A stretch of DNA of 32,000 nt from Aulosira sp. ZfuVER01 (GTDB lineage Bacteria > Cyanobacteriota > Cyanobacteriia > Cyanobacteriales > Nostocaceae): assembly GCA_034530615.2 (NCBI GenBank), contig JAVRCV020000052.1:122559-154558 (forward strand). Reading direction: 5' to 3'. A program made the position numbers and the translations under genes. Below are positions 5,842-14,277 of the stretch, piece by piece (position 1 is the stretch's first letter; each line of letters starts with the position of its first letter). The notes beneath the pieces are model-generated. The model saw only the letters and a program-made list of their open reading frames with translations. It ran no database searches and was not told the origin of the DNA.

Positions 5842-6174
5842 TCAATCCAACCTACTCATCTGCTCATTAATGGAGTTCAAAGGCTCATTAACGGAGTAAA
5901 AAGCCTCATTAACGGAGCAAAAAGCCTCGTTCACGGAGCTAAAAGCCTCATTAACGGAGCTAAAAGCCTCATTCACGGAGTAAAAAGCCTCGTTCACGGA
6001 GTAAAAAGCCTCATTAATGGAGCTAAAAGCTTCATTAACGGAGTAAAAAGCCTCATTAACGGAGCTAAAAGCCTCGTTCACGGAGTAAAAAGCCTCATTA
6101 ATGGAGCTAAAAGCCTCGTTCACGGAGTAAAAAGCCTCATTAATGGAGCTAAAAGCCTCATTAACGAATATCAA
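5842..6174 (-). CDS. Possible heptad-repeat protein (NEAF[S/Y/C]S[V/I])n encoded by the 21-bp repeat; coding status uncertain
   Basis: The minus-strand frame is open across the whole array. The position 4 and 7 polymorphisms are synonymous in this frame (AAT/AAC, GTT/GTG). Against coding, the only start after the upstream in-frame TAG (6223-6225) is a TTG at 6172-6174, and there is no ATG. Confidence 0.3.
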   Translation of the reverse strand: MIFVNEAFSSINEAFYSVNEAFSSINEAFYSVNEAFSSVNEAFYSVNEAFSSINEAFYSVNEAFYSVNEAFSSVNEAFSSVNEAFCSVNEAFYSVNEPLNSINEQMSRLD

Positions 6175-6353: not shown

Positions 6354-6809
6354 ATGGAACCAATAACCATCGGTGCGATCGCTCTTTTAACTTTAATCGG
6401 CAATAAGGTCATCGATTGGTCAACAGAAAAGGCTTTGGATGCTGGTTTAGACAAAGCCAAGCAAGTTCTTAAAGCTAAATCACCTGAAACAGCCGCCGCT
6501 TTAGAAACCGCAGCCGCACAAGCAGCCTTACCACCAGGAGAACGAGAATATATTGGTGAAGCTGTGTTGGTAGAAGAGGTAAAAAAAGCAGCAGAAGCAG
6601 ACTCGGAAATTAAGGAAGCTGTCGAAGCATTAGGAAATCAAGCCAGTACTGCTGCACAAGCTAACCCAGAACTGGCAAAGGCTATTGCAGAGTTAACCGC
6701 TGCTATTAAAGCGCAAAGTCCGACAACGGTAGAAAACTGGCAAGGTATAAATATCAAAGGTGGCGAGAATAGTATCAGTAATCCCACATTCAACTTTGGC
6801 AGCAAATGA
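6354..6809 (+). CDS. Small helical protein with an N-terminal hydrophobic helix and a C-terminal G/N/Q-rich motif shared with the adjacent NLR (Bell/HeLo-like executioner candidate)
   Basis: The N-terminus is MEPITIGAIALLTLIGNKVIDW, followed by an A/E/K-rich helical body. The C-terminus is ENWQGINIKGGENSISNPTFNFGSK. The TGA stop overlaps the ATG of the next ORF (ATGA at 6806-6809). Confidence 0.8.
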   Translation: MEPITIGAIALLTLIGNKVIDWSTEKALDAGLDKAKQVLKAKSPETAAALETAAAQAALPPGEREYIGEAVLVEEVKKAAEADSEIKEAVEALGNQASTAAQANPELAKAIAELTAAIKAQSPTTVENWQGINIKGGENSISNPTFNFGSK

Positions 6810-9800
6810 CCAACGAGAATTGGCAAGGGATAAACATTAAGGGTGGCGAGACTAACATCAACAACCCAATCATCAATTTTGGGTCATCACAACAGACTTC
6901 TCCACCAAATATCCCCAACAATTTAATTTACAAAGGCGCGGTCGAGTTTGTTGGGCGAGAAAATGAACTTACCGATATCCATCAGAAATTGCAGCAGTCG
7001 GCTAACGTAGCAATTTCGGCGGTAGCTGGGATGGGTGGTATCGGCAAAACAGAACTAGCAACCCAGTACGCATTAAGACATGAAGCTGATTATCCTGGCG
7101 GTATCTGCTGGCTAAATGCAAGAGAATCAGAATTAGCAGCTAGCATTGTGCAATTTTATCTGTTGTACATTGGTCAAGAAATCCCAAAAGAATTGGGGGG
7201 AAAACTGCTGAACCTCCAAGAACAAGTACGGTGGTGTTGGCAGCATTGGCAACCATCTGAGGGTTTGGTGTTGGTAGTATTAGATGATGTCACTAATTTA
7301 GAGAATCTGCGAGAATTACAACCAACAACCAACCGCTTCCGGGTACTCATCACCACCCGCTTACGCAATCTCAACCGCAATTTTGTCAAGGAAATTTCCT
7401 TAGATGTACTCCCGGAAATCAAAGCTTTAGAACTGCTAACAGCTTTTGTAGGTGAAAAGCGAATACAACGGGAAGAAACAACAGCTAAACAATTGTGTCA
7501 ATGGCTGGGATATTTACCCTTGGGGTTGGAATTAGTCGGACAGTATTTAGCTGAAGATCCAGATTTATCCTTAGCAGAAATGTTGGAACGGCTGAAAGTG
7601 CAACGCATAGAGGATGAAGCACTAGAACGGAGACAGCCAACCCTGAGTGCAGCACAGCTGGGAGTGAAAGCCGCCTTTGAATTAAGCTGGCGAGAACTGG
7701 ATGAAAAAACTCAGCTTGTAGGTGCGTTGTTGAGTTTATTTGCTCCTGATGTTATACCTTGGCAATTGGCAGAGGCTACCAGTGAGTTGCTGAATTGGGC
7801 AAAGGCAGATGTAACGGAAGCGAGAAAGCAACTCTACAAACGCCATCTCATTCAAAGATTAGAAGATACAAACGCTTGTTATCAAATTCATCCATTAATT
7901 CGACAATTTCTCCAAGGAAAATTTGGACAAATTCCTCTCATTACTGGCAAGGAAGAGTTAGGAATGGAATTCAAACAAGCTTTTGCAACTGCGATGGTAG
8001 CAAAGGCAAAAGAAATTCCTAAAACTCCCACCCGTGAATTTATTGAGTCAATACAAGGTACTATTCCCCATGTCCAAGAAGTTGCCCAGAACTTAATTCA
8101 TGCCGTCAAGGATGAAGATTTAACTTGGGTATTTGTTGGCTTGGGTAATTTTTATGAAGGACAGGGTTTGTATGCGTTAGCAGAACCTTGGCGTATACAA
8201 TGTTTATCAACAGTCAAAACTCGTTTGGGAGAAGAACATCCCGAAGTTGCTACCAGCCTCAACAACTTGGCTAATCTCTACGAATCCCAAGGAAATTACA
8301 CCGCAGCCGAACCCTTGTTTCAGCAAGCTTTGGCAATGAGAAAACGCCTGCTGGGAGAAGAACATCCCAACATTGCCCAAAGCCTCAACAACTTGGCTAA
8401 TGTCTACGAATCCCAAGGAAATTACACTGTAGCTAAACCCTTGTATCAGCAAGCTTTGGCAATGTATAAACGCCTGCTGGGAGATGAACATCCCCACGTC
8501 GCCACCAGCCTCAGCAACTTGGCTAATGTCTACTATTTCCAAGGAAATTATACTGTAGCTAAACCCTTGTATCAGCAAGCTTTGGCAATGAGAAAACGCC
8601 TGCTGGGAGATCAACATCCCGACATCGCCACCAGCCTCAGCAACTTGGCTAATCTCTACTATTCCCAAGGAAGGTACTCCGAAGCCGAACCTTTGCATCA
8701 GCAAGCTTTGGCAATGAGAAAACGCCTGCTGGGAGATCAACATCCCGACACCGCTACAAGCCTTATCGACTTGGCTGATCTCTACTCTTCCCAAGGAAAT
8801 TACACCGCAGCCGAACCCTTGTATCAGCAAGCTTTGGCAATGCATAAACATCTGCTGGGAGATGAACATCCCCACGTCGCCATTAGCCTCAACAGCTTGG
8901 CTAATCTCTACTCTTCCCAAGGAAATTACACCGCAGCCGAACCCTTGTATCAGCAAGCTTTGGCAATGCATAAACATCTGCTGGGAGATGAACATCCCCG
9001 AGTCGCCACCAGCCTCAACAACTTGGCTAATCTCTACTATTCCCAAGGAAGGTATGCCGATGCCGAACCCTTATATCAGCAAGCTTTGGCAATGAGAAAA
9101 CGGCTGCTGGGAAATGAACATCCCCGAGTCGCCACCAGCCTCAACAACTTGGCTAATCTCTACAAATCCCAAGGAAATTACACCGCAGCTGAACCTTTGT
9201 ATCTGCAAGCTTTGGCAATGAGTAAACGCCTGCTGGGAGATGAACATCCCGATGTTGCCGCCAGCCTCAACAACTTGGCTTTACTCTACTCTTCCCAAGG
9301 AAATTACACCGCAGCCGAACCCTTGTATCAGCAAGCTTTGGCAATGCATAAACATCTGCTGGGAGATGAACATCCCCACGTCGCCATCAGCCTTAATAAC
9401 TTGGCTTTACTCTACTCTTCCCAAGGAAATTACACCGCAGCTGAACCTTTGTATCTGCAAGCTTTGGCAATGAGTAAACGCCTGCTGGGAGATGAACATC
9501 CCGACATCGCCACCAGCCTTAACAACTTGGCTTATCTCTACTCTTCCCAAGGAAATTACACCGCAGCTGAACCTTTGTATCTGCAAGCTTTGGCAATGAG
9601 TAAACGCCTGCTGGGAGATGAACATCCCGATGTTGCCGCCAGCCTCAACAACTTGGCTTTACTCTACTCTTCCCAAGGAAATTACACCGCAGCCGAACCC
9701 TTGTATCAGCAAGCTTTGGCAATGCATAAACATCTGCTGGGAGATGAACATCCCCACGTCGCCATCAGCCTCAACGACTTGGCTTTACTCTACTATTCCC

Positions 9801-9934
9801 AAGGAAATTACGCCGCCGCCGCACCCTTGTATCTGCAAGCTTTGGCAATTTTTGAGCAAAAATTAGGTGTCGATCATCCTCGTACAGTTAAGTGTCGTCA
9901 AAATCTTGAACTTCTTCATGCTGCTAACTCTTAA
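6806..9934 (+). CDS. NLR-like STAND ATPase: N-terminal short signalling motif + NB-ARC + TPR array
   Basis: Residues 4-27 are ENWQGINIKGGETNINNPIINFGS. NB-ARC motifs are present: P-loop GMGGIGKT (7028-7051), Walker B LVLVVLDDV, RVLITTR, GYLPLGLELVG (GLPL-like) and YQIHPLIRQF (MHD-like). These are followed by 13 full 42-aa TPR units plus a C-terminal cap. Confidence 0.92.
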   Translation: MTNENWQGINIKGGETNINNPIINFGSSQQTSPPNIPNNLIYKGAVEFVGRENELTDIHQKLQQSANVAISAVAGMGGIGKTELATQYALRHEADYPGGICWLNARESELAASIVQFYLLYIGQEIPKELGGKLLNLQEQVRWCWQHWQPSEGLVLVVLDDVTNLENLRELQPTTNRFRVLITTRLRNLNRNFVKEISLDVLPEIKALELLTAFVGEKRIQREETTAKQLCQWLGYLPLGLELVGQYLAEDPDLSLAEMLERLKVQRIEDEALERRQPTLSAAQLGVKAAFELSWRELDEKTQLVGALLSLFAPDVIPWQLAEATSELLNWAKADVTEARKQLYKRHLIQRLEDTNACYQIHPLIRQFLQGKFGQIPLITGKEELGMEFKQAFATAMVAKAKEIPKTPTREFIESIQGTIPHVQEVAQNLIHAVKDEDLTWVFVGLGNFYEGQGLYALAEPWRIQCLSTVKTRLGEEHPEVATSLNNLANLYESQGNYTAAEPLFQQALAMRKRLLGEEHPNIAQSLNNLANVYESQGNYTVAKPLYQQALAMYKRLLGDEHPHVATSLSNLANVYYFQGNYTVAKPLYQQALAMRKRLLGDQHPDIATSLSNLANLYYSQGRYSEAEPLHQQALAMRKRLLGDQHPDTATSLIDLADLYSSQGNYTAAEPLYQQALAMHKHLLGDEHPHVAISLNSLANLYSSQGNYTAAEPLYQQALAMHKHLLGDEHPRVATSLNNLANLYYSQGRYADAEPLYQQALAMRKRLLGNEHPRVATSLNNLANLYKSQGNYTAAEPLYLQALAMSKRLLGDEHPDVAASLNNLALLYSSQGNYTAAEPLYQQALAMHKHLLGDEHPHVAISLNNLALLYSSQGNYTAAEPLYLQALAMSKRLLGDEHPDIATSLNNLAYLYSSQGNYTAAEPLYLQALAMSKRLLGDEHPDVAASLNNLALLYSSQGNYTAAEPLYQQALAMHKHLLGDEHPHVAISLNDLALLYYSQGNYAAAAPLYLQALAIFEQKLGVDHPRTVKCRQNLELLHAANS
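8140..9900 (+). repeat. 126-bp tandem array encoding the TPR units of the NLR (approximate bounds)
   Basis: The period is exactly 126 bp; for example the CAT of the HP dipeptide falls at 8237 and at 8363. Positions 9167-9393 are identical base for base to 9545-9771, a 227-bp match at an offset of 378 bp (3 units). Confidence 0.9.
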
Positions 9935-10015
9935 CTCTTTACTTTGGCTTTCGGTAGCAGACAGCGATCAAATAATTGCACAATAAAAGTAGTTCGTCAT
10001 AGTTACTACTTAGAA

Positions 10016-11410
10016 ATGCCGACTAAACTAGCAGATGCACAAAATTTACTTTCCGATCTAATTGCCCGCTACTCATCTCGTGTAGATTATTTGATGATTC
10101 GCCTGGAAGAAGCCGAAGGTACTGATATCTTGTTGCGTGGTGACAAGGTAGAAACCCTCAGCGAAGGTATCTCAATGGGCGGACATATTCGCGCTTGTTA
10201 TAAAGGCGGGTGGGGCTTAAGCTGCTTTAATCGGCTTTCGACAATTCAAGAACGGATCGAAGAAGCGATCGCAGCTGCGCGCATGGTAGGTGATGAAGAG
10301 ACTGTACTAGCTCCAATTGACCCAGTGCAAGCAGTATGCAGTCTACCCCTCACAGGAACCGATCCGCGCAAAATTTCGTTGAGTCAGAAAAAAGAATTAT
10401 GCGATCGCTATTCCGATCTACTCAAAAGCGTTGATTCCCGAATTACTACAACTTCAGTCCGCTACGGTGATACTGCCCAAAAAATTATTCTTGCCACCTC
10501 AGATGGTACATTCATTGAACAATCTTGGGTGGACATGGAAATGCGCTTCGCTGCTACTGCGAGAAACGGCGAAACTGTCCAAACCGGCAGAGAAACCACC
10601 GGTTCACGCAAAGCCTACGAAGATTTAACCAAATTAGACGAACAAGTTAAGAGTGCTTCTCAAAGAGCGATCGCAGCTTTATCTCTACCATCAGTAAAAG
10701 GTAATACTTATACCGTCGTAATTGACCCTATACTTACTGGTTTATTTGTTCACGAAGCCTTTGGACATCTGTCTGAAGCTGATATGGCTTACGAAAACCC
10801 GGATATTTTAGAAGTCATGACCATTGGACGGCGATTTGGCCCAGAAGAACTGCAAATTTTTGATGGTGCTGCGCCCGAAGGACATCGCGGTAGTTATTTT
10901 TACGACGATGAAGGCACACCTGCCACAACAACCCAACTAATTAAAGATGGAGTTTTGGTAGGACGTTTGCATTCCCGTGAAACCGCAGGCAAATTGGATG
11001 AAGCACCCACAGGCAATGCCCGTTGCCTTAATTATCACTTCACTCCCATTGTACGGATGACAAATACCTGGATTGAAAGAGGTAAAACACCAGTTGCAGA
11101 CTTATTTAGCCATATCAAAGAAGGCGTATATGCCCGTAATTGGCTAGGTGGAATGACCAATGGGGAAATGTTTACCTTTAGCGCCGGGGAAGCATGGATG
11201 ATTAGAAACGGCAAAATCGCTGAACCTGTCAGAGATGTCACCCTTTCTGGTAACGTTTTCCAAACCTTAGCAGATATTGAAGCAATTGGTGATGACTTTT
11301 ACTGGGATGAATCTGGCGGTTGTGGTAAAGGTGGACAAAATGGCTTACCTGTAGGTTGTGGCGGCCCCAGCCTGCGAATTCGAGATGTAGTAGTTGGCGG
11401 TGAAACTTAA
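10016..11410 (+). CDS. tldD: TldD-type metallopeptidase (TldD/PmbA family, peptidase U62)
   Basis: It carries the HEAFGH metal-binding motif and a GGGxG-rich C-terminus (GGCGKGGQNGLPVGCGGP). I prefer the ATG at 10016 (MPTKLADAQNLL...) over the track's TTG at 9944. Confidence 0.85.
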   Translation: MPTKLADAQNLLSDLIARYSSRVDYLMIRLEEAEGTDILLRGDKVETLSEGISMGGHIRACYKGGWGLSCFNRLSTIQERIEEAIAAARMVGDEETVLAPIDPVQAVCSLPLTGTDPRKISLSQKKELCDRYSDLLKSVDSRITTTSVRYGDTAQKIILATSDGTFIEQSWVDMEMRFAATARNGETVQTGRETTGSRKAYEDLTKLDEQVKSASQRAIAALSLPSVKGNTYTVVIDPILTGLFVHEAFGHLSEADMAYENPDILEVMTIGRRFGPEELQIFDGAAPEGHRGSYFYDDEGTPATTTQLIKDGVLVGRLHSRETAGKLDEAPTGNARCLNYHFTPIVRMTNTWIERGKTPVADLFSHIKEGVYARNWLGGMTNGEMFTFSAGEAWMIRNGKIAEPVRDVTLSGNVFQTLADIEAIGDDFYWDESGGCGKGGQNGLPVGCGGPSLRIRDVVVGGET

Positions 11411-11773
11411 AAAATTCGTAATTCAACACGTTTCAGTCAGGGTCTAAATCTTGTTCTGAAACTTAAGCTAAGTGTAGCCAAAAGGCAATTCCCATCATAA
11501 TCAAAAGGTGACGAATCTGCCTGTACCAATCAGCAATCTGTAGGCTATGCTTTTAAGCATAGGGCAAACACATATTTTTTAGCTGTTCAAAACATGAAGA
11601 ACAGTTAGAGTAATTTGCATGACATGATGCTCAGAAAAATTTTGTGACATTGGTCATGCTTTGCGTAAATCCTGTTGTATTTTTATCGGCAATCAGCTAA
11701 CAGAGGGGAAATTTACAATCACAAGGCTTTTGCCCTGCTGTTAAACAGGATTGACTTGAGAGGTATTTCATCA

Positions 11774-13174
11774 ATGAATAAAACTTCCCAGACGCAAAGC
11801 AGCGCCAGTATTTCCCTATTGGGCAGAATCAATTTAAAAGTTACAAAAAAGAAAATTTTATTCACTTCCCTTGTCTTATTTGTGGCTTTACTCAGTGTGG
11901 GTGGTGTGTGGTTTTCTAGCAGGTATAAGTTTGCTAATAAAATGGCAATCAAACTACAAGAACTATCTAATGCTGAGTATCCTGCTAATCCGGCTCTATT
12001 AAGTAAAAACTTCCAAAGATATTCTAGCCGTAAATTAACCATTATCAAGAGAGATGCTACTCACTTTGATTTTGTGTTAGAGCCAACAAACACAAAAACA
12101 GCAAAAATAGTCATCAAAAATGTTGATCTAAAATTATTAGTACCTAAAGTACCAGAATGGGTTAAAAAAGACAAAGATTTAGAATTAATTGCTTTTGTCG
12201 AACGGGAATGGAACAGACAGCAAGTAAGTTTTCCGGCTAACTCAGAAAATATAGAAATTAGTGGCGGTGATGGTTTTGAAAAGCAAAATCTCTATGAAAT
12301 TGCTTTAAGCAACAATTGCTTAAATGCAGGATTTTGGGAAATTGCACTTTTTACTAAAGAGGATGGCAATAAATCTCTTTATTATCAAACTTGGTTTACC
12401 TTCCCCATAGGACATTACAAAAATATCTTTGAAAAGATTAATAAAATATCTTATTGGCAGTATTGGTGGAGATTAGAACACTGGCAAGAACCCAGTGATT
12501 CTATTATGAGAAATAATCTGCTAAGAAATATAATCGATCAAAAAGAAGCTCCCGTTAATTTTCCTCTAGATGAAAGAATAATTGCATCCGGAGAACAGAG
12601 TAGAAAAATCAGAACTACCTTAACGAAAAACCTCACAACTTGGAGAGATTTTTACAGCAATAAACAAGAAATTAAATTTGCGGCTTTTCAACCACCAGGA
12701 TTTTATAACCCTGACCAAATTTGGAATACTCAATACTGGAGAATAGGTAAATTTGAAAAAGCTATTTTGAAAAACATTAAGCCTGTGAATAATGACACAA
12801 CCTTACAGGAAATTGAGTTATTATTCACTGATACTAAGACTGGTGAAAAAAATAGATTATTTATCAGTGGTATTAATTTCAAAGATTTGCCTAGTTTGGC
12901 TATTTCAGATTATGCTAAGGGCTTAACTATGCCTCTAGGAATTGGGGTTCCGCCATTTTTGCAAAGCTACGAAGAATTAAACAAGAATCATCCAGATGAA
13001 AGCCCTTACTTTAGTTTCTTGCTAGATTCTCAAGATAGATGGATCAATCATCACCAATTAGGAGTTGATGGTTCAATCATGCATCTGGATAAGAACAACC
13101 CCAATCTTTTGCATCTTTACTTACTTTCTTATGAACGAAATACTTTAATTGCTCATTTTTTGGTGAATCTATAG
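11774..13174 (+). CDS. Hypothetical membrane-anchored protein, AT-rich, with no recognisable domain
   Basis: Long uninterrupted ORF with one N-terminal TM helix (ILFTSLVLFVALLSVGGVWF). I prefer the ATG at 11774 (MNKTSQTQ...) to the track's TTG at 11675. It is visibly more AT-rich and K/N/I-rich than its neighbours. Confidence 0.7.
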   Translation: MNKTSQTQSSASISLLGRINLKVTKKKILFTSLVLFVALLSVGGVWFSSRYKFANKMAIKLQELSNAEYPANPALLSKNFQRYSSRKLTIIKRDATHFDFVLEPTNTKTAKIVIKNVDLKLLVPKVPEWVKKDKDLELIAFVEREWNRQQVSFPANSENIEISGGDGFEKQNLYEIALSNNCLNAGFWEIALFTKEDGNKSLYYQTWFTFPIGHYKNIFEKINKISYWQYWWRLEHWQEPSDSIMRNNLLRNIIDQKEAPVNFPLDERIIASGEQSRKIRTTLTKNLTTWRDFYSNKQEIKFAAFQPPGFYNPDQIWNTQYWRIGKFEKAILKNIKPVNNDTTLQEIELLFTDTKTGEKNRLFISGINFKDLPSLAISDYAKGLTMPLGIGVPPFLQSYEELNKNHPDESPYFSFLLDSQDRWINHHQLGVDGSIMHLDKNNPNLLHLYLLSYERNTLIAHFLVNL

Positions 13175-13200
13175 CAATCTTAAATCATTAATTGTAAACA

Positions 13201-13233
13201 ATATCCCCGAATTCTCAAAGAATTCGGGGATAT
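13201..13233. terminator. Perfect 14-bp stem hairpin between convergent genes (candidate bidirectional terminator)
   Basis: The arm atatccccgaattc (13201-13214), the loop tcaaa and the arm gaattcggggatat (13220-13233). It sits 27 bp after the stop at 13174 and 32 bp after the minus-strand stop at 13265. No strong T-run follows on the plus strand. Confidence 0.6.
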
Positions 13234-13264
13234 GTAGCTTGCATACACAGTTTATGATGGCTAC

Positions 13265-13591
13265 TTAGTCAACTCTTACTTGCTTCAGTAAAGCAATCCA
13301 CATATCTGATGGATTTGAATAGTAATCAATTTCTTCAACTTGATACCGATAATTTTGATAGCCATGTTGCAAAATAATATAGTCACGGGGTTTAATACCT
13401 TTTCCTGTTCCGGTCATGTAACCCCCCAAGCCTCCTTGTCGCGTTTCAAATATGTAGTCTTTGCCTCGCATTAATTGGCTATAATCGTGTATTTTATGCT
13501 TTTGTTGTGTTTCATTTAATATAACGAGCATTGGCAAGAACCCACTAAATAAACTAAAGCTAAAATTAATACCTGTTCTAGGAATAGACAT
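13265..13591 (-). CDS. Small hypothetical protein
   Basis: ORF of 108 aa; an alternative start at M21 gives MLVILNETQQ.... The C-terminal two-thirds look globular (GKDYIFETRQGGLGGYMTGTGKGIKPRDYIILQ...YRYQVEEIDYYSNPSDMWIALL). I recognise no domain. Confidence 0.55.
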   Translation of the reverse strand: MSIPRTGINFSFSLFSGFLPMLVILNETQQKHKIHDYSQLMRGKDYIFETRQGGLGGYMTGTGKGIKPRDYIILQHGYQNYRYQVEEIDYYSNPSDMWIALLKQVRVD

Positions 13592-14277
13592 AGTGAGTTT
13601 TCCAAAAGATTATGTTTACAAAAAGAGTTTTAGCTAGATGAGTATTAGGTTTTTCCAAAAACTAAGCGAGAAAAATGTTGTGTAAATTGTAATTAGAAAA
13701 TAACCTTACAAGATTGTACTCTGGATATGAGTCTAACTAATTACAAGCCACTGCACTTATATGTGCAAAAATTTAACCAATACAGTTCAGTTAATTCTGC
13801 TTATTCTTCAGATAATACTGAACCCTATTGAATTTATGGAATATATAACCCAAGTCTTATCTGCACCCTATTGCAACATAAACTCAAAAATTATTAGCAG
13901 TTCTCTGAGAACATACTCAAAAACGATCCCACGATCAGTATTTATAATTGGGAATCATTTTTTTAAAACTAATTAGATAAAAATCTTTCAAATTGTTACT
14001 ACATAAAATTTCTATGGTTTCTCATGCCAGATAAATAATGAAAATAGAAGTAGCAAAGCTATTACTAGCTAACTATAGTGCCCTCAAGATTAAATGTGAG
14101 CCTAATAATCAGTTTACAGTAATAGCGATCTTAGCGTCTACTGTAAAATTACCAAAATATTATGTGCAGTATATCCATATATAGGCTTCTATCCTCGACA
14201 TAGGTATACACATTAATCTATCAATATCTGATGTCCTGGCAACATCACTAAGATGTATTTTAAACAACAAAAATGCT

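Follow-up and report, generated by a model that had tools for sequence, protein, structure and literature searches.

A Bell-like effector/NLR gene pair sharing a BASS7 motif in the filamentous cyanobacterium Aulosira sp.

Introduction

Bacterial gene pairs in which an NLR-like protein and a separate effector carry the same short motif were catalogued by Dyrka et al. (2020, bioRxiv 10.1101/2020.01.06.895854), in whose terms BASS stands for "bacterial amyloid signalling sequence". In the Bell/BASS-NLR model published there, the output of the NLR is delegated to a motif-bearing Bell partner. The Bell domain is described as an all-helical unit of about 100 amino acids that opens with a hydrophobic helix and is acidic at position 2 or 3, and the NLRs of the class combine NB-ARC or NACHT with TPR or WD repeats. 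The pairs are collinear in 91% of cases and have overlapping ORFs in 42%, and the two genes usually overlap or lie no more than 10 bp apart. One motif family, BASS7, is restricted to cyanobacteria (Dyrka et al. 2020).

BASS1 and the RHIM-like BASS3 form prions and fibrils, with NLR-side motifs converting Bell-side motifs, and the Bab/Agp pair of E. coli (BASS11) provides amyloid-dependent abortive infection against T5. The experimental amyloid tests in the literature that we examined concern BASS1, BASS3 and BASS11, and BASS7 is named in a grammar paper of 2021 as one of the families whose sequences were too few for contacts to be predicted. The N-terminal signature of Bell has also been described for Hell, Bab and Avast2, and a hydrophobic MEPIx N-terminus with a helical bundle and a disordered tail has been described for both Bell and Babybell. 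Bab loses its Abi activity through a G11K mutation in its helix region, and the defence activity of Avast2 is affected by mutations in the corresponding part of its N-terminus.

Here we describe two genes in a 32,000-nucleotide stretch of DNA from Aulosira sp. ZfuVER01 (the window). Judged by its sequence, the gene pair at 6354-9934 is a Bell-domain effector/NLR pair with a BASS7 motif. The feature is real and not new: its class (Bell/BASS7-NLR) was catalogued in 2020, an orthologue already stands in the table of the defining paper, and the window pair is one more well-preserved example. We consider it probable that the two genes of this filamentous cyanobacterium (Aulosira sp., Nostocales) form a regulated-cell-death or defence module, of Bell/BASS-NLR type and BASS7 family, working by a scheme of sensing, templating and membrane attack.

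Results

The upstream gene of the pair (Table 1) encodes a small protein that begins MEPITIGAIALL, with E2, and M1, P3, T5, G7, A8 and I9 are nearly invariant among 31 effector homologues. Its AF2 model (mean pLDDT 68) contains six helices over residues 3-121 (pLDDT 64-86), followed by a disordered tail, with pLDDT below 50 for residues 123-151. The sequence is identical to that of proteins from Aulosira sp. MAGs and shares 87% identity with OUL32057.1, a Bell-domain protein according to Dyrka et al. (2020). E2, the conserved N-terminus, the six-helix model and the retrieval of the orthologue as Bell by the defining study all fit the published description of the domain, and on the strength of orthology and a moderate-confidence AF2 model we regard the protein as a probable Bell effector. 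Pfam, NCBIfam and PADLOC gave no family match for it. A Foldseek comparison of the model with the PDB returned best hits at E ~1 (Ctr1, Bcl-xL and others), and searching the PDB sequences with a profile of the effector family yielded nothing significant and recovered no Bab/Babybell chain.

Table 1. Positions of the effector/NLR pair and its parts within the window.
Feature	Position	Strand	Basis
Gene for 151-aa Bell-like protein, candidate membrane-targeting cell-death executioner	6354..6809	+	ORF, orthology, AF2
N-terminal hydrophobic helix MEPITIGAIALLTLIGNKVIDW, MEPIS-type motif, acidic residue at position 2	6354..6419	+	sequence
BASS7 motif, effector-side copy ENWQGINIKGGENSISNPTFNFGS, residues 127-150	6732..6803	+	alignment; bass_07 entries of Table S2
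ATGA, 4-bp overlap of effector stop and NLR start (translational coupling, one operon)	6806..6809	+	
Gene for 1042-aa NB-ARC/TPR NLR-like STAND ATPase, sensor	6806..9934	+	ORF, Pfam, motifs, AF2, Foldseek
BASS7 motif, NLR-side copy ENWQGINIKGGETNINNPIINFGS, residues 4-27	6815..6886	+	pairwise alignment, six-frame search
P/N/Q-rich flexible linker, residues 28-51	6887..6958	+	sequence; pLDDT 39-60; no domain match
Nucleotide-binding oligomerisation module, NB-ARC	6959..7921	+	Pfam, motifs, AF2, Foldseek
P-loop; Walker B; GLPL motif and winged-helix IHPLIRQF also inside the NB-ARC module	7028-7051; 7265-7291	+	
13 highly similar 42-aa TPR repeats, presumed ligand sensor	8231..9868	+	TRF, repeat register, Pfam

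The original prediction described the product of the downstream gene as an NLR-like STAND ATPase in which a short motif and a P/N/Q linker lead straight into NB-ARC. This is the arrangement that we find (motif 4-27, linker 28-51, NB-ARC from 52), and the listed NB-ARC motifs and the TPR array are all in place in the protein: GMGGIGKT at residues 75-82 (with K81), LVLVVLDDV at 154-162, RVLITTR at 179-185, GYLPLGLELVG at 235-245 and IHPLIRQF at 361-368. Pfam recognises NB-ARC at residues 52-269 (E 2e-15) and 13-14 TPR_10/TPR_12 units (E 1e-247). The TPR repeats are near-identical, with few variable columns (TRF over 8226-9849: period 126, 12.9 copies, 88% matches), and the 13-repeat array is followed by a capping repeat that reaches the stop codon. 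From residue 52 the AF2 model is a confident Apaf-1-like NOD (pLDDT mostly 80-95), for which Foldseek finds Apaf-1 (E 3e-13) as well as CED-4, plant NRC/ZAR1 and MalT (8bob). A protein of Aulosira sp. DedVER01a matches the NLR at 100% identity over 460 amino acids.

The claim that this NLR lacks an effector domain of its own also held. No Pfam domain was found in residues 1-51 and no PADLOC or NCBIfam match in residues 1-70; the AF2 model is of low confidence before residue 52 (pLDDT 39-60 for residues 1-40), and the only structure in the first 40 residues is a small beta-hairpin at 8-19 (strands 8-12 and 15-19), so that none of Pfam (1-51), PADLOC and AF2 gives an effector fold in residues 1-70. 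With PADLOC the NLR matched generic TPR models only; the Avs and bNACHT models, NOD included, had no match. An above-cutoff NCBIfam match to NF040586 (FxSxx-COOH system TPR protein, 431 bits) was rejected as repeat-driven: its best-scoring stretch pairs NLR residues 738-1040, repetitive TPR only, with profile positions 432-736. No radical-SAM or FxSxx gene was found near the pair.

Could the small protein instead be a regulator of the NLR, an inhibitor or a chaperone, with the output of the NLR lying elsewhere? The TPR array might, for example, sequester a target in the manner of MalT- or AfsR-like STAND regulators. The NOD has a match to the SARP regulator AfsR in NCBIfam, far below threshold (143 bits against a cutoff of 1430), Foldseek also matches MalT (8bob), and no known toxic domain was detected in the small protein by Pfam, PADLOC, NCBIfam or Foldseek. 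However, neither a DNA-binding domain nor any other output domain is present in the NLR, and the small protein keeps a conserved hydrophobic MEPIx N-terminal helix, the region implicated by Bab G11K and by the Avast2 mutations. We regard a purely regulatory small protein as very unlikely, and an executioner role remains our preferred reading. It is also the division of labour foreseen in the original prediction, in which output would be delegated to the upstream small protein; this matches the published Bell/BASS-NLR model, which for BASS7 is an inferred one.

The two proteins are linked by their motifs. NLR residues 2-27 and effector residues 125-150 share 20 of 26 positions (pairwise E 1e-12), and the two copies are about 80% identical in DNA. 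A six-frame fuzzy search of the 32-kb window found copies at 6732-6803 and 6815-6886 only, which bears out the earlier view that the motif is confined to the NLR and its upstream neighbour. The motif matches bass_07 rows of Table S2 of Dyrka et al. (2020), e.g. 'NENWQGINIKGGTNTINNNTFNF', and the window pair shows the shared motif, collinearity and NLR partner of a Bell/BASS-NLR pair. The reading of the motif as a tag shared by both proteins thus stood, but its amyloid or prion-like role and its prior description had been missed. By analogy with other BASS families, the BASS7 motif is thought to act as an amyloid or prion-like templating element; in the window pair it is rich in N, G, Q and I and disordered in the monomer models, with the beta-hairpin at NLR 8-19.

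Among the closest known systems is a syntenic orthologous pair in Nostoc sp. 106C, OUL32057.1/OUL32058.1, which is included in Table S2 of Dyrka et al. (2020) and corresponds to P0005/P0038 (87% identity). Its NLR belongs to the same clade (87% over the first 460 amino acids). The window NLR has the longer TPR array (13 repeats, 1042 aa, vs 790 aa in 106C), and the window motif is of the canonical ENWQGINIKGG form, whereas that of 106C is of a diverged QG(V/I)ITxGG form in which both copies have changed together (QGVITTGGQTTVKGSTFNFGS / QGIITQGGKVIVQDSTFNFGS). BASS7 pairs of Nostocales resemble the window pair in motif family, 4-bp overlap and flanking order (ClpP-ClpP-DnaJ-PaO-ThiS ... TldD), and PAX60321.1/PAX60320.1 of Calothrix elsteri is another BASS7 Bell/NB-ARC-TPR pair. 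In the window, the neighbours are housekeeping genes (ClpP, DnaJ, PaO, ThiS, TldD, CoaE, gyrA and others), and no recognisable defence island or prophage surrounds the pair; because it sits among housekeeping genes, its context does not support an antiviral role. A promoter scan of the + strand upstream of 6354 gave no sigma-70-like site.

To place the locus among its relatives, BASS7 motifs were counted in species-representative genomes with an HMM built from 40 instances, a true locus being one that scored at least 25 bits. There were 66 such loci (25-53 bits), and chance ENWQGIN matches reached at most 18 bits among the scored matches. The two-copy, same-strand layout was seen in 35 of the 66, spanning many cyanobacterial genera. 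The original prediction had staked its model on orthologues having a motif-bearing neighbour, and in all 35 loci where both copies were detected, a small ORF with the motif lies immediately upstream in the same orientation; at one further locus, where the upstream DNA is cut off, the NLR-side copy stands alone. Twelve BASS7 loci have the identical 4-bp overlap, and the 83-nt offset between copies recurs in 12 loci besides that of the window. The homologues found all come from Nostocales or other filamentous cyanobacteria, that is, from multicellular or filamentous hosts.

This census comes close to refuting the view that the repeat is a functionless accident of local duplication at a gene boundary. 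Two copies 83 nt apart with some 80% DNA identity are what such an accident could leave behind, but the layout is conserved in 35 loci across many genera and was independently described in the literature, its spacings range from 83 to 449 nt, and the protein core ENWQGIN is kept even where the DNA has diverged. We find the accident hardly credible.

Cognate copies are similar rather than identical, agreeing at 13-20 of 24 positions. Over positions 8-24 they share 9.2 identities, against 7.2 for non-cognate copies (36 distinct pairs, permutation p ~1e-4), an excess that could come partly from shared ancestry or gene conversion rather than from selection for matching. Both partners are also modular. 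The effector family keeps its helical domain while the C-terminal motif is swapped among at least four types, and within the NLR clade the N-terminus is swapped among BASS7, BASS9 and other types, as would be expected if the motif were a signalling adaptor.

These data also bear on a second alternative, in which the motif is a docking tag that forms no amyloid. The N-terminus of the NLR would then pair one-to-one with the C-terminus of the effector, for example by beta-strand augmentation, and the small protein would serve the NLR as a stoichiometric adaptor or as its membrane anchor; prion-like templating and amplification would play no part. The shortness of the motif, the simple beta-hairpin that is all AF2 gives for it and the incomplete match between cognate copies, never full, are compatible with such a tag, and the amyloid tests in the literature that we examined concern other BASS families. 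On the other hand, the segment has the N/Q/G-rich, strand-turn-strand pattern of other BASS families, and amyloids or prions have been demonstrated for three of these (BASS1, BASS3 and BASS11). It also passes as a module between effectors and NLRs that are unrelated, a behaviour easier to reconcile with self-templating than with a heterodimer interface that has co-evolved. We therefore consider docking without amyloid unlikely, and favour a templating motif.

Discussion

The domain architecture, the motif pair, the operon coupling, the conservation of the layout and the co-divergence of the two copies are direct observations. By homology or analogy with described systems, amyloid formation, templating, membrane attack and a trigger (phage, other non-self or stress) may be added to them. 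We suggest that the NB-ARC/TPR protein would be the sensor, its 13-repeat array presumably binding a ligand, and that binding would release an ADP-locked autoinhibition and allow the NB-ARC modules to oligomerise. The oligomer would gather the N-terminal 24-aa BASS7 segments into a cross-beta (beta-arch) fold, and this nucleus could template the same fold onto the identical-type C-terminal motif of the co-translated 151-aa Bell-like protein. Once converted, the tail might release the hydrophobic N-terminal 'MEPIT' helix from the Bell bundle for membrane insertion, killing or arresting the cell.

The scheme resembles HET-S/NWD2 of Podospora anserina, where an NLR with a short N-terminal amyloid motif adjoins the gene of a pore-forming helical effector that has the same motif C-terminally, and where NLR oligomerisation templates the effector, as is proposed for the window pair. 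Neither the motifs (HRAM vs BASS7) nor the effectors (HeLo vs Bell) have sequence homology, the fungal NLR is of the NACHT/WD rather than the NB-ARC/TPR type, and HET-S has two motif pseudorepeats where the window effector has one motif. Bab/Agp (E. coli ECOR25), whose abortive infection was shown by experiment, uses BASS11 and a shorter Babybell domain (~80 aa) and resides in a prophage defence island, whereas the window pair lies among housekeeping genes. Avs and bNACHT proteins are likewise STAND NTPases with a C-terminal repeat sensor and presumed activation by oligomerisation, and Avast2 and bNACHT02/11/23 have the same MEPIS-type helix fused at the N-terminus. In contrast to their fused effectors, that of the window is a separate polypeptide linked through the motif only; residues 1-51 of the window NLR are domain-free and disordered or of low confidence in AF2, and the NLR matches no Avs or bNACHT model in PADLOC. 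In the RHIM-mediated RIPK1/RIPK3 necrosome, a short amyloid motif common to the partners also drives a cell-death switch, but the partners are kinases rather than NLR and Bell, and BASS7 has no sequence relation to RHIM. In practice, the window pair offers a clean BASS7 system, with two motif copies and a sensor of 13 repeats, suited both to testing BASS7 as a templating amyloid and to asking what cyanobacterial NLRs sense.

Many cyanobacterial Bell/NLR pairs outside the window have a single motif copy only. In these one-copy relatives the effector ORF ends in UGA at 38 of 38 unique junctions, mostly as UGA-C, and 8 nt further on lies a conserved, covarying GC-rich hairpin that may be an H-type pseudoknot, its loop being rich in A. 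Past the junction the NLR continues in the same reading frame, and a canonical start before its conserved FVGR motif is often absent. We found no description of this arrangement in the literature searched, and Rfam has no family at the junction. Tentatively, and with not quite an even chance of being right, we propose programmed UGA readthrough: termination would yield a free effector-motif protein and occasional readthrough an effector-motif-NLR fusion. A single motif copy would then serve both partners, with the sensor-to-effector stoichiometry set by translation, and the two-copy layout of the window would be a 'resolved' alternative of the same system. The junction is potentially more important than the window pair itself. 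Readthrough, if true, would show how one coding copy of an amyloid signalling motif can serve two proteins, and would be an unusual case of stop-codon recoding stimulated by structured RNA in a cellular bacterial immune gene, unusual at least to our knowledge.

Other explanations of the junction fared less well. Selenocysteine insertion at the UGA is unlikely, since the hairpin lacks the typical spacing and loop features of a bacterial SECIS; in addition, the Sec-decoding trait went undetected in Cyanobacteria in a comparative study. A MITE-like insertion was rejected because the junction always occupies the same in-frame position between the motif-bearing ORF and the STAND gene. A conserved peptide signal, 'SPERERVKLNPP', was dropped in favour of an RNA element: pN/pS in the linker after the UGA is ~1-2, with no protein-level purifying selection seen there, and pS is unusually low, which points to constraint at the nucleotide level. 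The RNA element is further supported by covariation and by a compensated +1/-1 indel.

Identity of the effector-NLR pair

Dyrka et al. (2020, bioRxiv 10.1101/2020.01.06.895854) described 'Bell domain / BASS motif / NLR' gene pairs. In these, the effector is a helical protein of about 100 aa with a motif of about 25 aa at its C-terminus, and the product of an adjoining, collinear and often overlapping NB-ARC/NACHT-TPR/WD gene has the same motif at its N-terminus. The 'bass_07' sequences in Table S2 of that study include NENWQGINIKGGTNTINNNTFNF, and one row of the table is the pair OUL32057.1/OUL32058.1 of Nostoc sp. 106C. By exact look-up, OUL32057.1 (P0005 among our effector homologues) is 87% identical to the window effector, and OUL32058.1 (P0038 among the NLR homologues) is 87% identical to the window NLR across 460 aa. 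The Nostoc sp. 106C locus is also syntenic with the window (ClpP, ClpP, DnaJ, PaO, ThiS, a 138-aa ORF, effector, NLR, TldD). The window pair agrees with the Bell/BASS-NLR class in each defining feature that could be tested, and one of the listed BASS7 pairs is its orthologue; the class is already published, and the pair itself is an added member. We regard this identification, as Bell/BASS-NLR with the BASS7 motif, as close to certain.

Coordinates of features in the window and of junctions in related loci
Feature	Position	Strand	Remarks
Effector gene	6354-6809	+	ORF, 151 aa
NLR gene	6806-9934	+	ORF, 1042 aa
NLR P-loop GMGGIGKT	residues 75-82		K81
NLR Walker B LVLVVLDDV	residues 154-162
NLR RVLITTR	residues 179-185
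NLR GYLPLGLELVG	residues 235-245
NLR IHPLIRQF	residues 361-368
TPR array	8226-9849		88% self-identity at DNA level
TldD/PmbA metallopeptidase gene	9944-11410		putative start 10 nt past NLR stop (window 9934-9944)
499-aa ORF	11675-13174		inside low-G+C stretch; predicted N-terminal hydrophobic segment
Example single-motif junction	L022 2018-2100
Junction loci, BASS7			L008, L013, L018, L022, L024, L042, L043, L047, L048, L052, L054, L061, L065, L069, L073, L079, L080, L082, L092, L110, L122, L124
Junction loci, other motifs			L001-L004, L126-L150

The effector ends in ...TVENWQGINIKGGENSISNPTFNFGSK and the NLR begins with MTNENWQGINIKGGETNINNPIINFGSS; the two stretches align with 20/26 identities (pairwise E 1e-12), their DNA is about 80% identical, and the genes themselves overlap by ATGA. 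A six-frame fuzzy search recovered these two motif copies only, in line with the original prediction that no other gene in the window carries the motif. The effector matched no family in Pfam, NCBIfam or PADLOC. Its N-terminus, MEPITIGAIALL, is a hydrophobic 'MEPIS-type' helix with an acidic residue second. Such a helix is typical of Bell, Hell and Bab, and Avast2 and some bNACHT proteins begin with it too. AlphaFold2 modelled effector residues 3-121 as a bundle of six helices and the tail (123-151) as disordered. An identical sequence is present among Aulosira MAG proteins.

The NLR protein

The original prediction held that the NLR has no effector domain of its own and delegates its output to the small protein upstream. 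Pfam placed NB-ARC at NLR residues 52-269 (E 2e-15) and gave a very strong TPR_12/TPR_10 signal, so that both predicted domains were recovered, and the predicted sequence motifs were each located where they had been placed. Upstream of residue 52 there was no Pfam domain, and residues 1-70 had no PADLOC match. An AlphaFold2 model of residues 1-460 (33 input sequences, mean pLDDT 82) had pLDDT values of 39-60 across residues 1-40, where only a small beta-hairpin was formed (8-12 and 15-19), and the confident NOD began at residue 52. In Foldseek searches, the modelled NOD matched Apaf-1 (E 3e-13), CED-4 and the NB-ARC modules of plant NRC/ZAR1. Because of these results, we conclude that the NLR hides no effector fold; none appeared in residues 1-70 with either domain scans or AlphaFold2. 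The idea of an effector-less NLR with delegated output is thus essentially correct, and it matches the published Bell/BASS-NLR concept.

The TPR array predicted to follow NB-ARC comprises 13 repeats, each of 42 aa, which keep perfect register over the C-terminal half of the protein and have a DNA identity of 88%. Variation is limited to a few of the 42 columns (positions 5, 6, 8, 15, 18, 25, 37 and 39). Orthologues are 528-804 aa long and a same-species nr record has 622 aa, versus 1042 aa in the window; this wide spread indicates that repeats have been gained and lost, or that the assemblies have collapsed. The TPR repeat also gives rise to an artefactual minus-strand ORF of 279 aa (8207-9046).

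Proposed mechanism

The components shown for the window pair, or read directly from its data, are an effector-less STAND ATPase; a small helical protein that is co-transcribed and translationally coupled with it; a co-varying motif, rich in N/G/Q/I, which the two proteins share and which monomer models leave disordered; and a repeat sensor of the hypervariable type. By analogy with known systems, we suggest that a ligand would bind the TPR array, NB-ARC would oligomerise, and the N-terminal NLR motifs would cluster into a cross-beta nucleus. This nucleus would template the effector tail, and effector helix 1 would then be released to damage the membrane. HET-S/NWD2 is a fungal precedent, prion and fibril formation as well as NLR-to-Bell conversion are known for BASS1 and BASS3, and in E. 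coli Bab/Agp, T5 infection activates a Bell-type effector in an amyloid-dependent manner and brings about abortive infection. We found no experimental work on BASS7 in the literature searched. The full mechanism is, in our judgement, probable for the window pair, and identification and mechanism combined are very likely. The NLR differs from Avs/bNACHT proteins in having neither a fused effector nor a PADLOC match, and we therefore do not count the pair among them; it plausibly works like an Avs/bNACHT system whose effector is detached.

Motif shuffling and co-divergence among relatives

The recovered effector family has 36 members (P0001-P0036, alignment A2), and all named members are from Nostocales. 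Across these 36 proteins the helical domain is conserved and at least four unrelated C-terminal motifs occur. Among the closest 120 NB-ARC/TPR relatives of the NLR (P0037-P0156), N-termini are likewise interchangeable: BASS7 (in several cyanobacterial orders), a BASS9-like 'NAKGWQTQVEGG', an N-terminal domain of some 100 aa, found in proteins with the precomputed Pfam family PF19954, or none. 'GNYNExxxxDY' is a further N-terminus in the NLR clade. The signalling motif thus moves between effectors and NLRs as a module; such swapping matches the expectation for a signalling adaptor. Both motif copies have diverged in parallel at the orthologous Nostoc sp. 106C locus, and in a set of 36 distinct pairs the variable positions 8-24 show 9.2 identities between cognate copies versus 7.2 between non-cognate ones (permutation p ~1e-4), an excess to which shared ancestry can contribute.

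A scan of one genome per species for ENWQGIN, with matches scored by the motif HMM, gave at least 66 true BASS7 loci. Among the matches listed, 35 of the 66 have two same-strand copies, at the C-terminus of a small ORF and then at the N-terminus of a long one, and 12 of these two-copy loci share the 83-nt offset of the window. Wherever both copies were detected among the matches listed, the effector-side copy lies upstream of the NLR-side copy, and for this reason the suggestion that orthologues routinely occur without a motif-bearing neighbour fails; the comparison of neighbourhoods sides with the original prediction. In one further locus the NLR-side copy alone was detected, and its upstream DNA is truncated. 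In three two-copy loci (L045, L078, L125) a stop follows 30-52 codons after the NLR-side motif, and these copies are probably decaying.

A UGA junction in single-copy relatives

Some relatives, although not the window, have a single-motif UGA junction; examples are L065 of Nostoc minutum NIES-26 and L003 of Gloeotrichia CP02. There are 31 single-copy BASS7 loci among the matches listed, 22 with sufficient downstream DNA. In all 22, a single stop directly follows the effector motif and the NLR continues in the same frame, which is open up to the P-loop in 21, with an earlier break in L047. The stop is invariably TGA, mostly TGA-C, in 38/38 unique junctions; all are in frame, and in 37 no further stop occurs within 45 codons. 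The junction follows at least ten unrelated C-terminal motif families and once precedes a NACHT gene. A metagenome scan, with a pattern covering the core of the downstream element alone and excluding the TGA, found TGA exactly 8 nt upstream of the stem in 24/24 matches. In two-copy pairs with a true spacer the stop is TAA (19), TAG (3) or TGA (1), and all three frame-offset classes occur.

The element reads TGA-N8-GCCCG-AACGGGAA-CGGG(C/U)-AAAGUUAAA-UCCC; it has no matching Rfam family, and the arrangement is not mentioned in the literature searched. Stem 1 has compensatory changes at 3/5 pairs (GUCGG/CCGAC, GUCCG/CGGAC, ACCCG/CGGGU). A second stem (GGGA/UCCC) is putative; it is 99% paired, shows one compensatory change and would possibly make an H-type pseudoknot. 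The post-UGA codons show no protein-level constraint and unusually low synonymous divergence. Five loci have a +1 insertion in the loop that a downstream -1 offsets; the encoded peptide changes from ERERAKLNPP to ERGTGKVKSP, and the frame into FVGR is restored.

In 15/34 junctions the frame offers no canonical start codon until after the conserved FVGR, and in 26/38 the UGA is followed by CTA, which is not a start codon. Taken together, the junction observations tentatively favour programmed UGA readthrough, by which a putative linker may be translated to give an effector-motif-NLR fusion, a reading that we put at slightly less than even odds. Other readings would be non-canonical reinitiation (GTG adjoins the TGA in two junctions), a purely regulatory RNA element, or evolutionary inertia. 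Selenocysteine insertion is unlikely because Cyanobacteria showed no Sec-decoding trait in a comparative study. Against readthrough, L138 (contig JAESFI010000095.1, around 6830) has an in-frame TAG two codons past the TGA.

Genomic surroundings

The other identifiable genes of the window (1-32000) are ClpP (two), DnaJ, PaO/Rieske, ThiS, TldD, CoaE, CobA-HemD, UbiA, a methyltransferase, TrkH/TrkA, QueA, Lnt and GyrA. All are housekeeping genes, and the NLR pair is outside any defence island or prophage. No terminator-like site was seen past the NLR stop, TldD follows the pair in Nostoc sp. 106C too, and co-transcription of the NLR with TldD/PmbA is possible. A tandem repeat at 5863-6166 (21 nt x 14.5 copies, 42-nt super-unit, 83-88% matches) sits 190 nt upstream of the effector gene, possibly in its 5'-UTR or promoter region; a 110-aa minus-strand ORF (INEAFSSVNEAFY...) is spurious, being generated by this repeat. 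The 499-aa ORF had no Pfam match. G+C is 0.32 over 11675-14000 versus 0.42-0.47 elsewhere, and this stretch may have been horizontally acquired.
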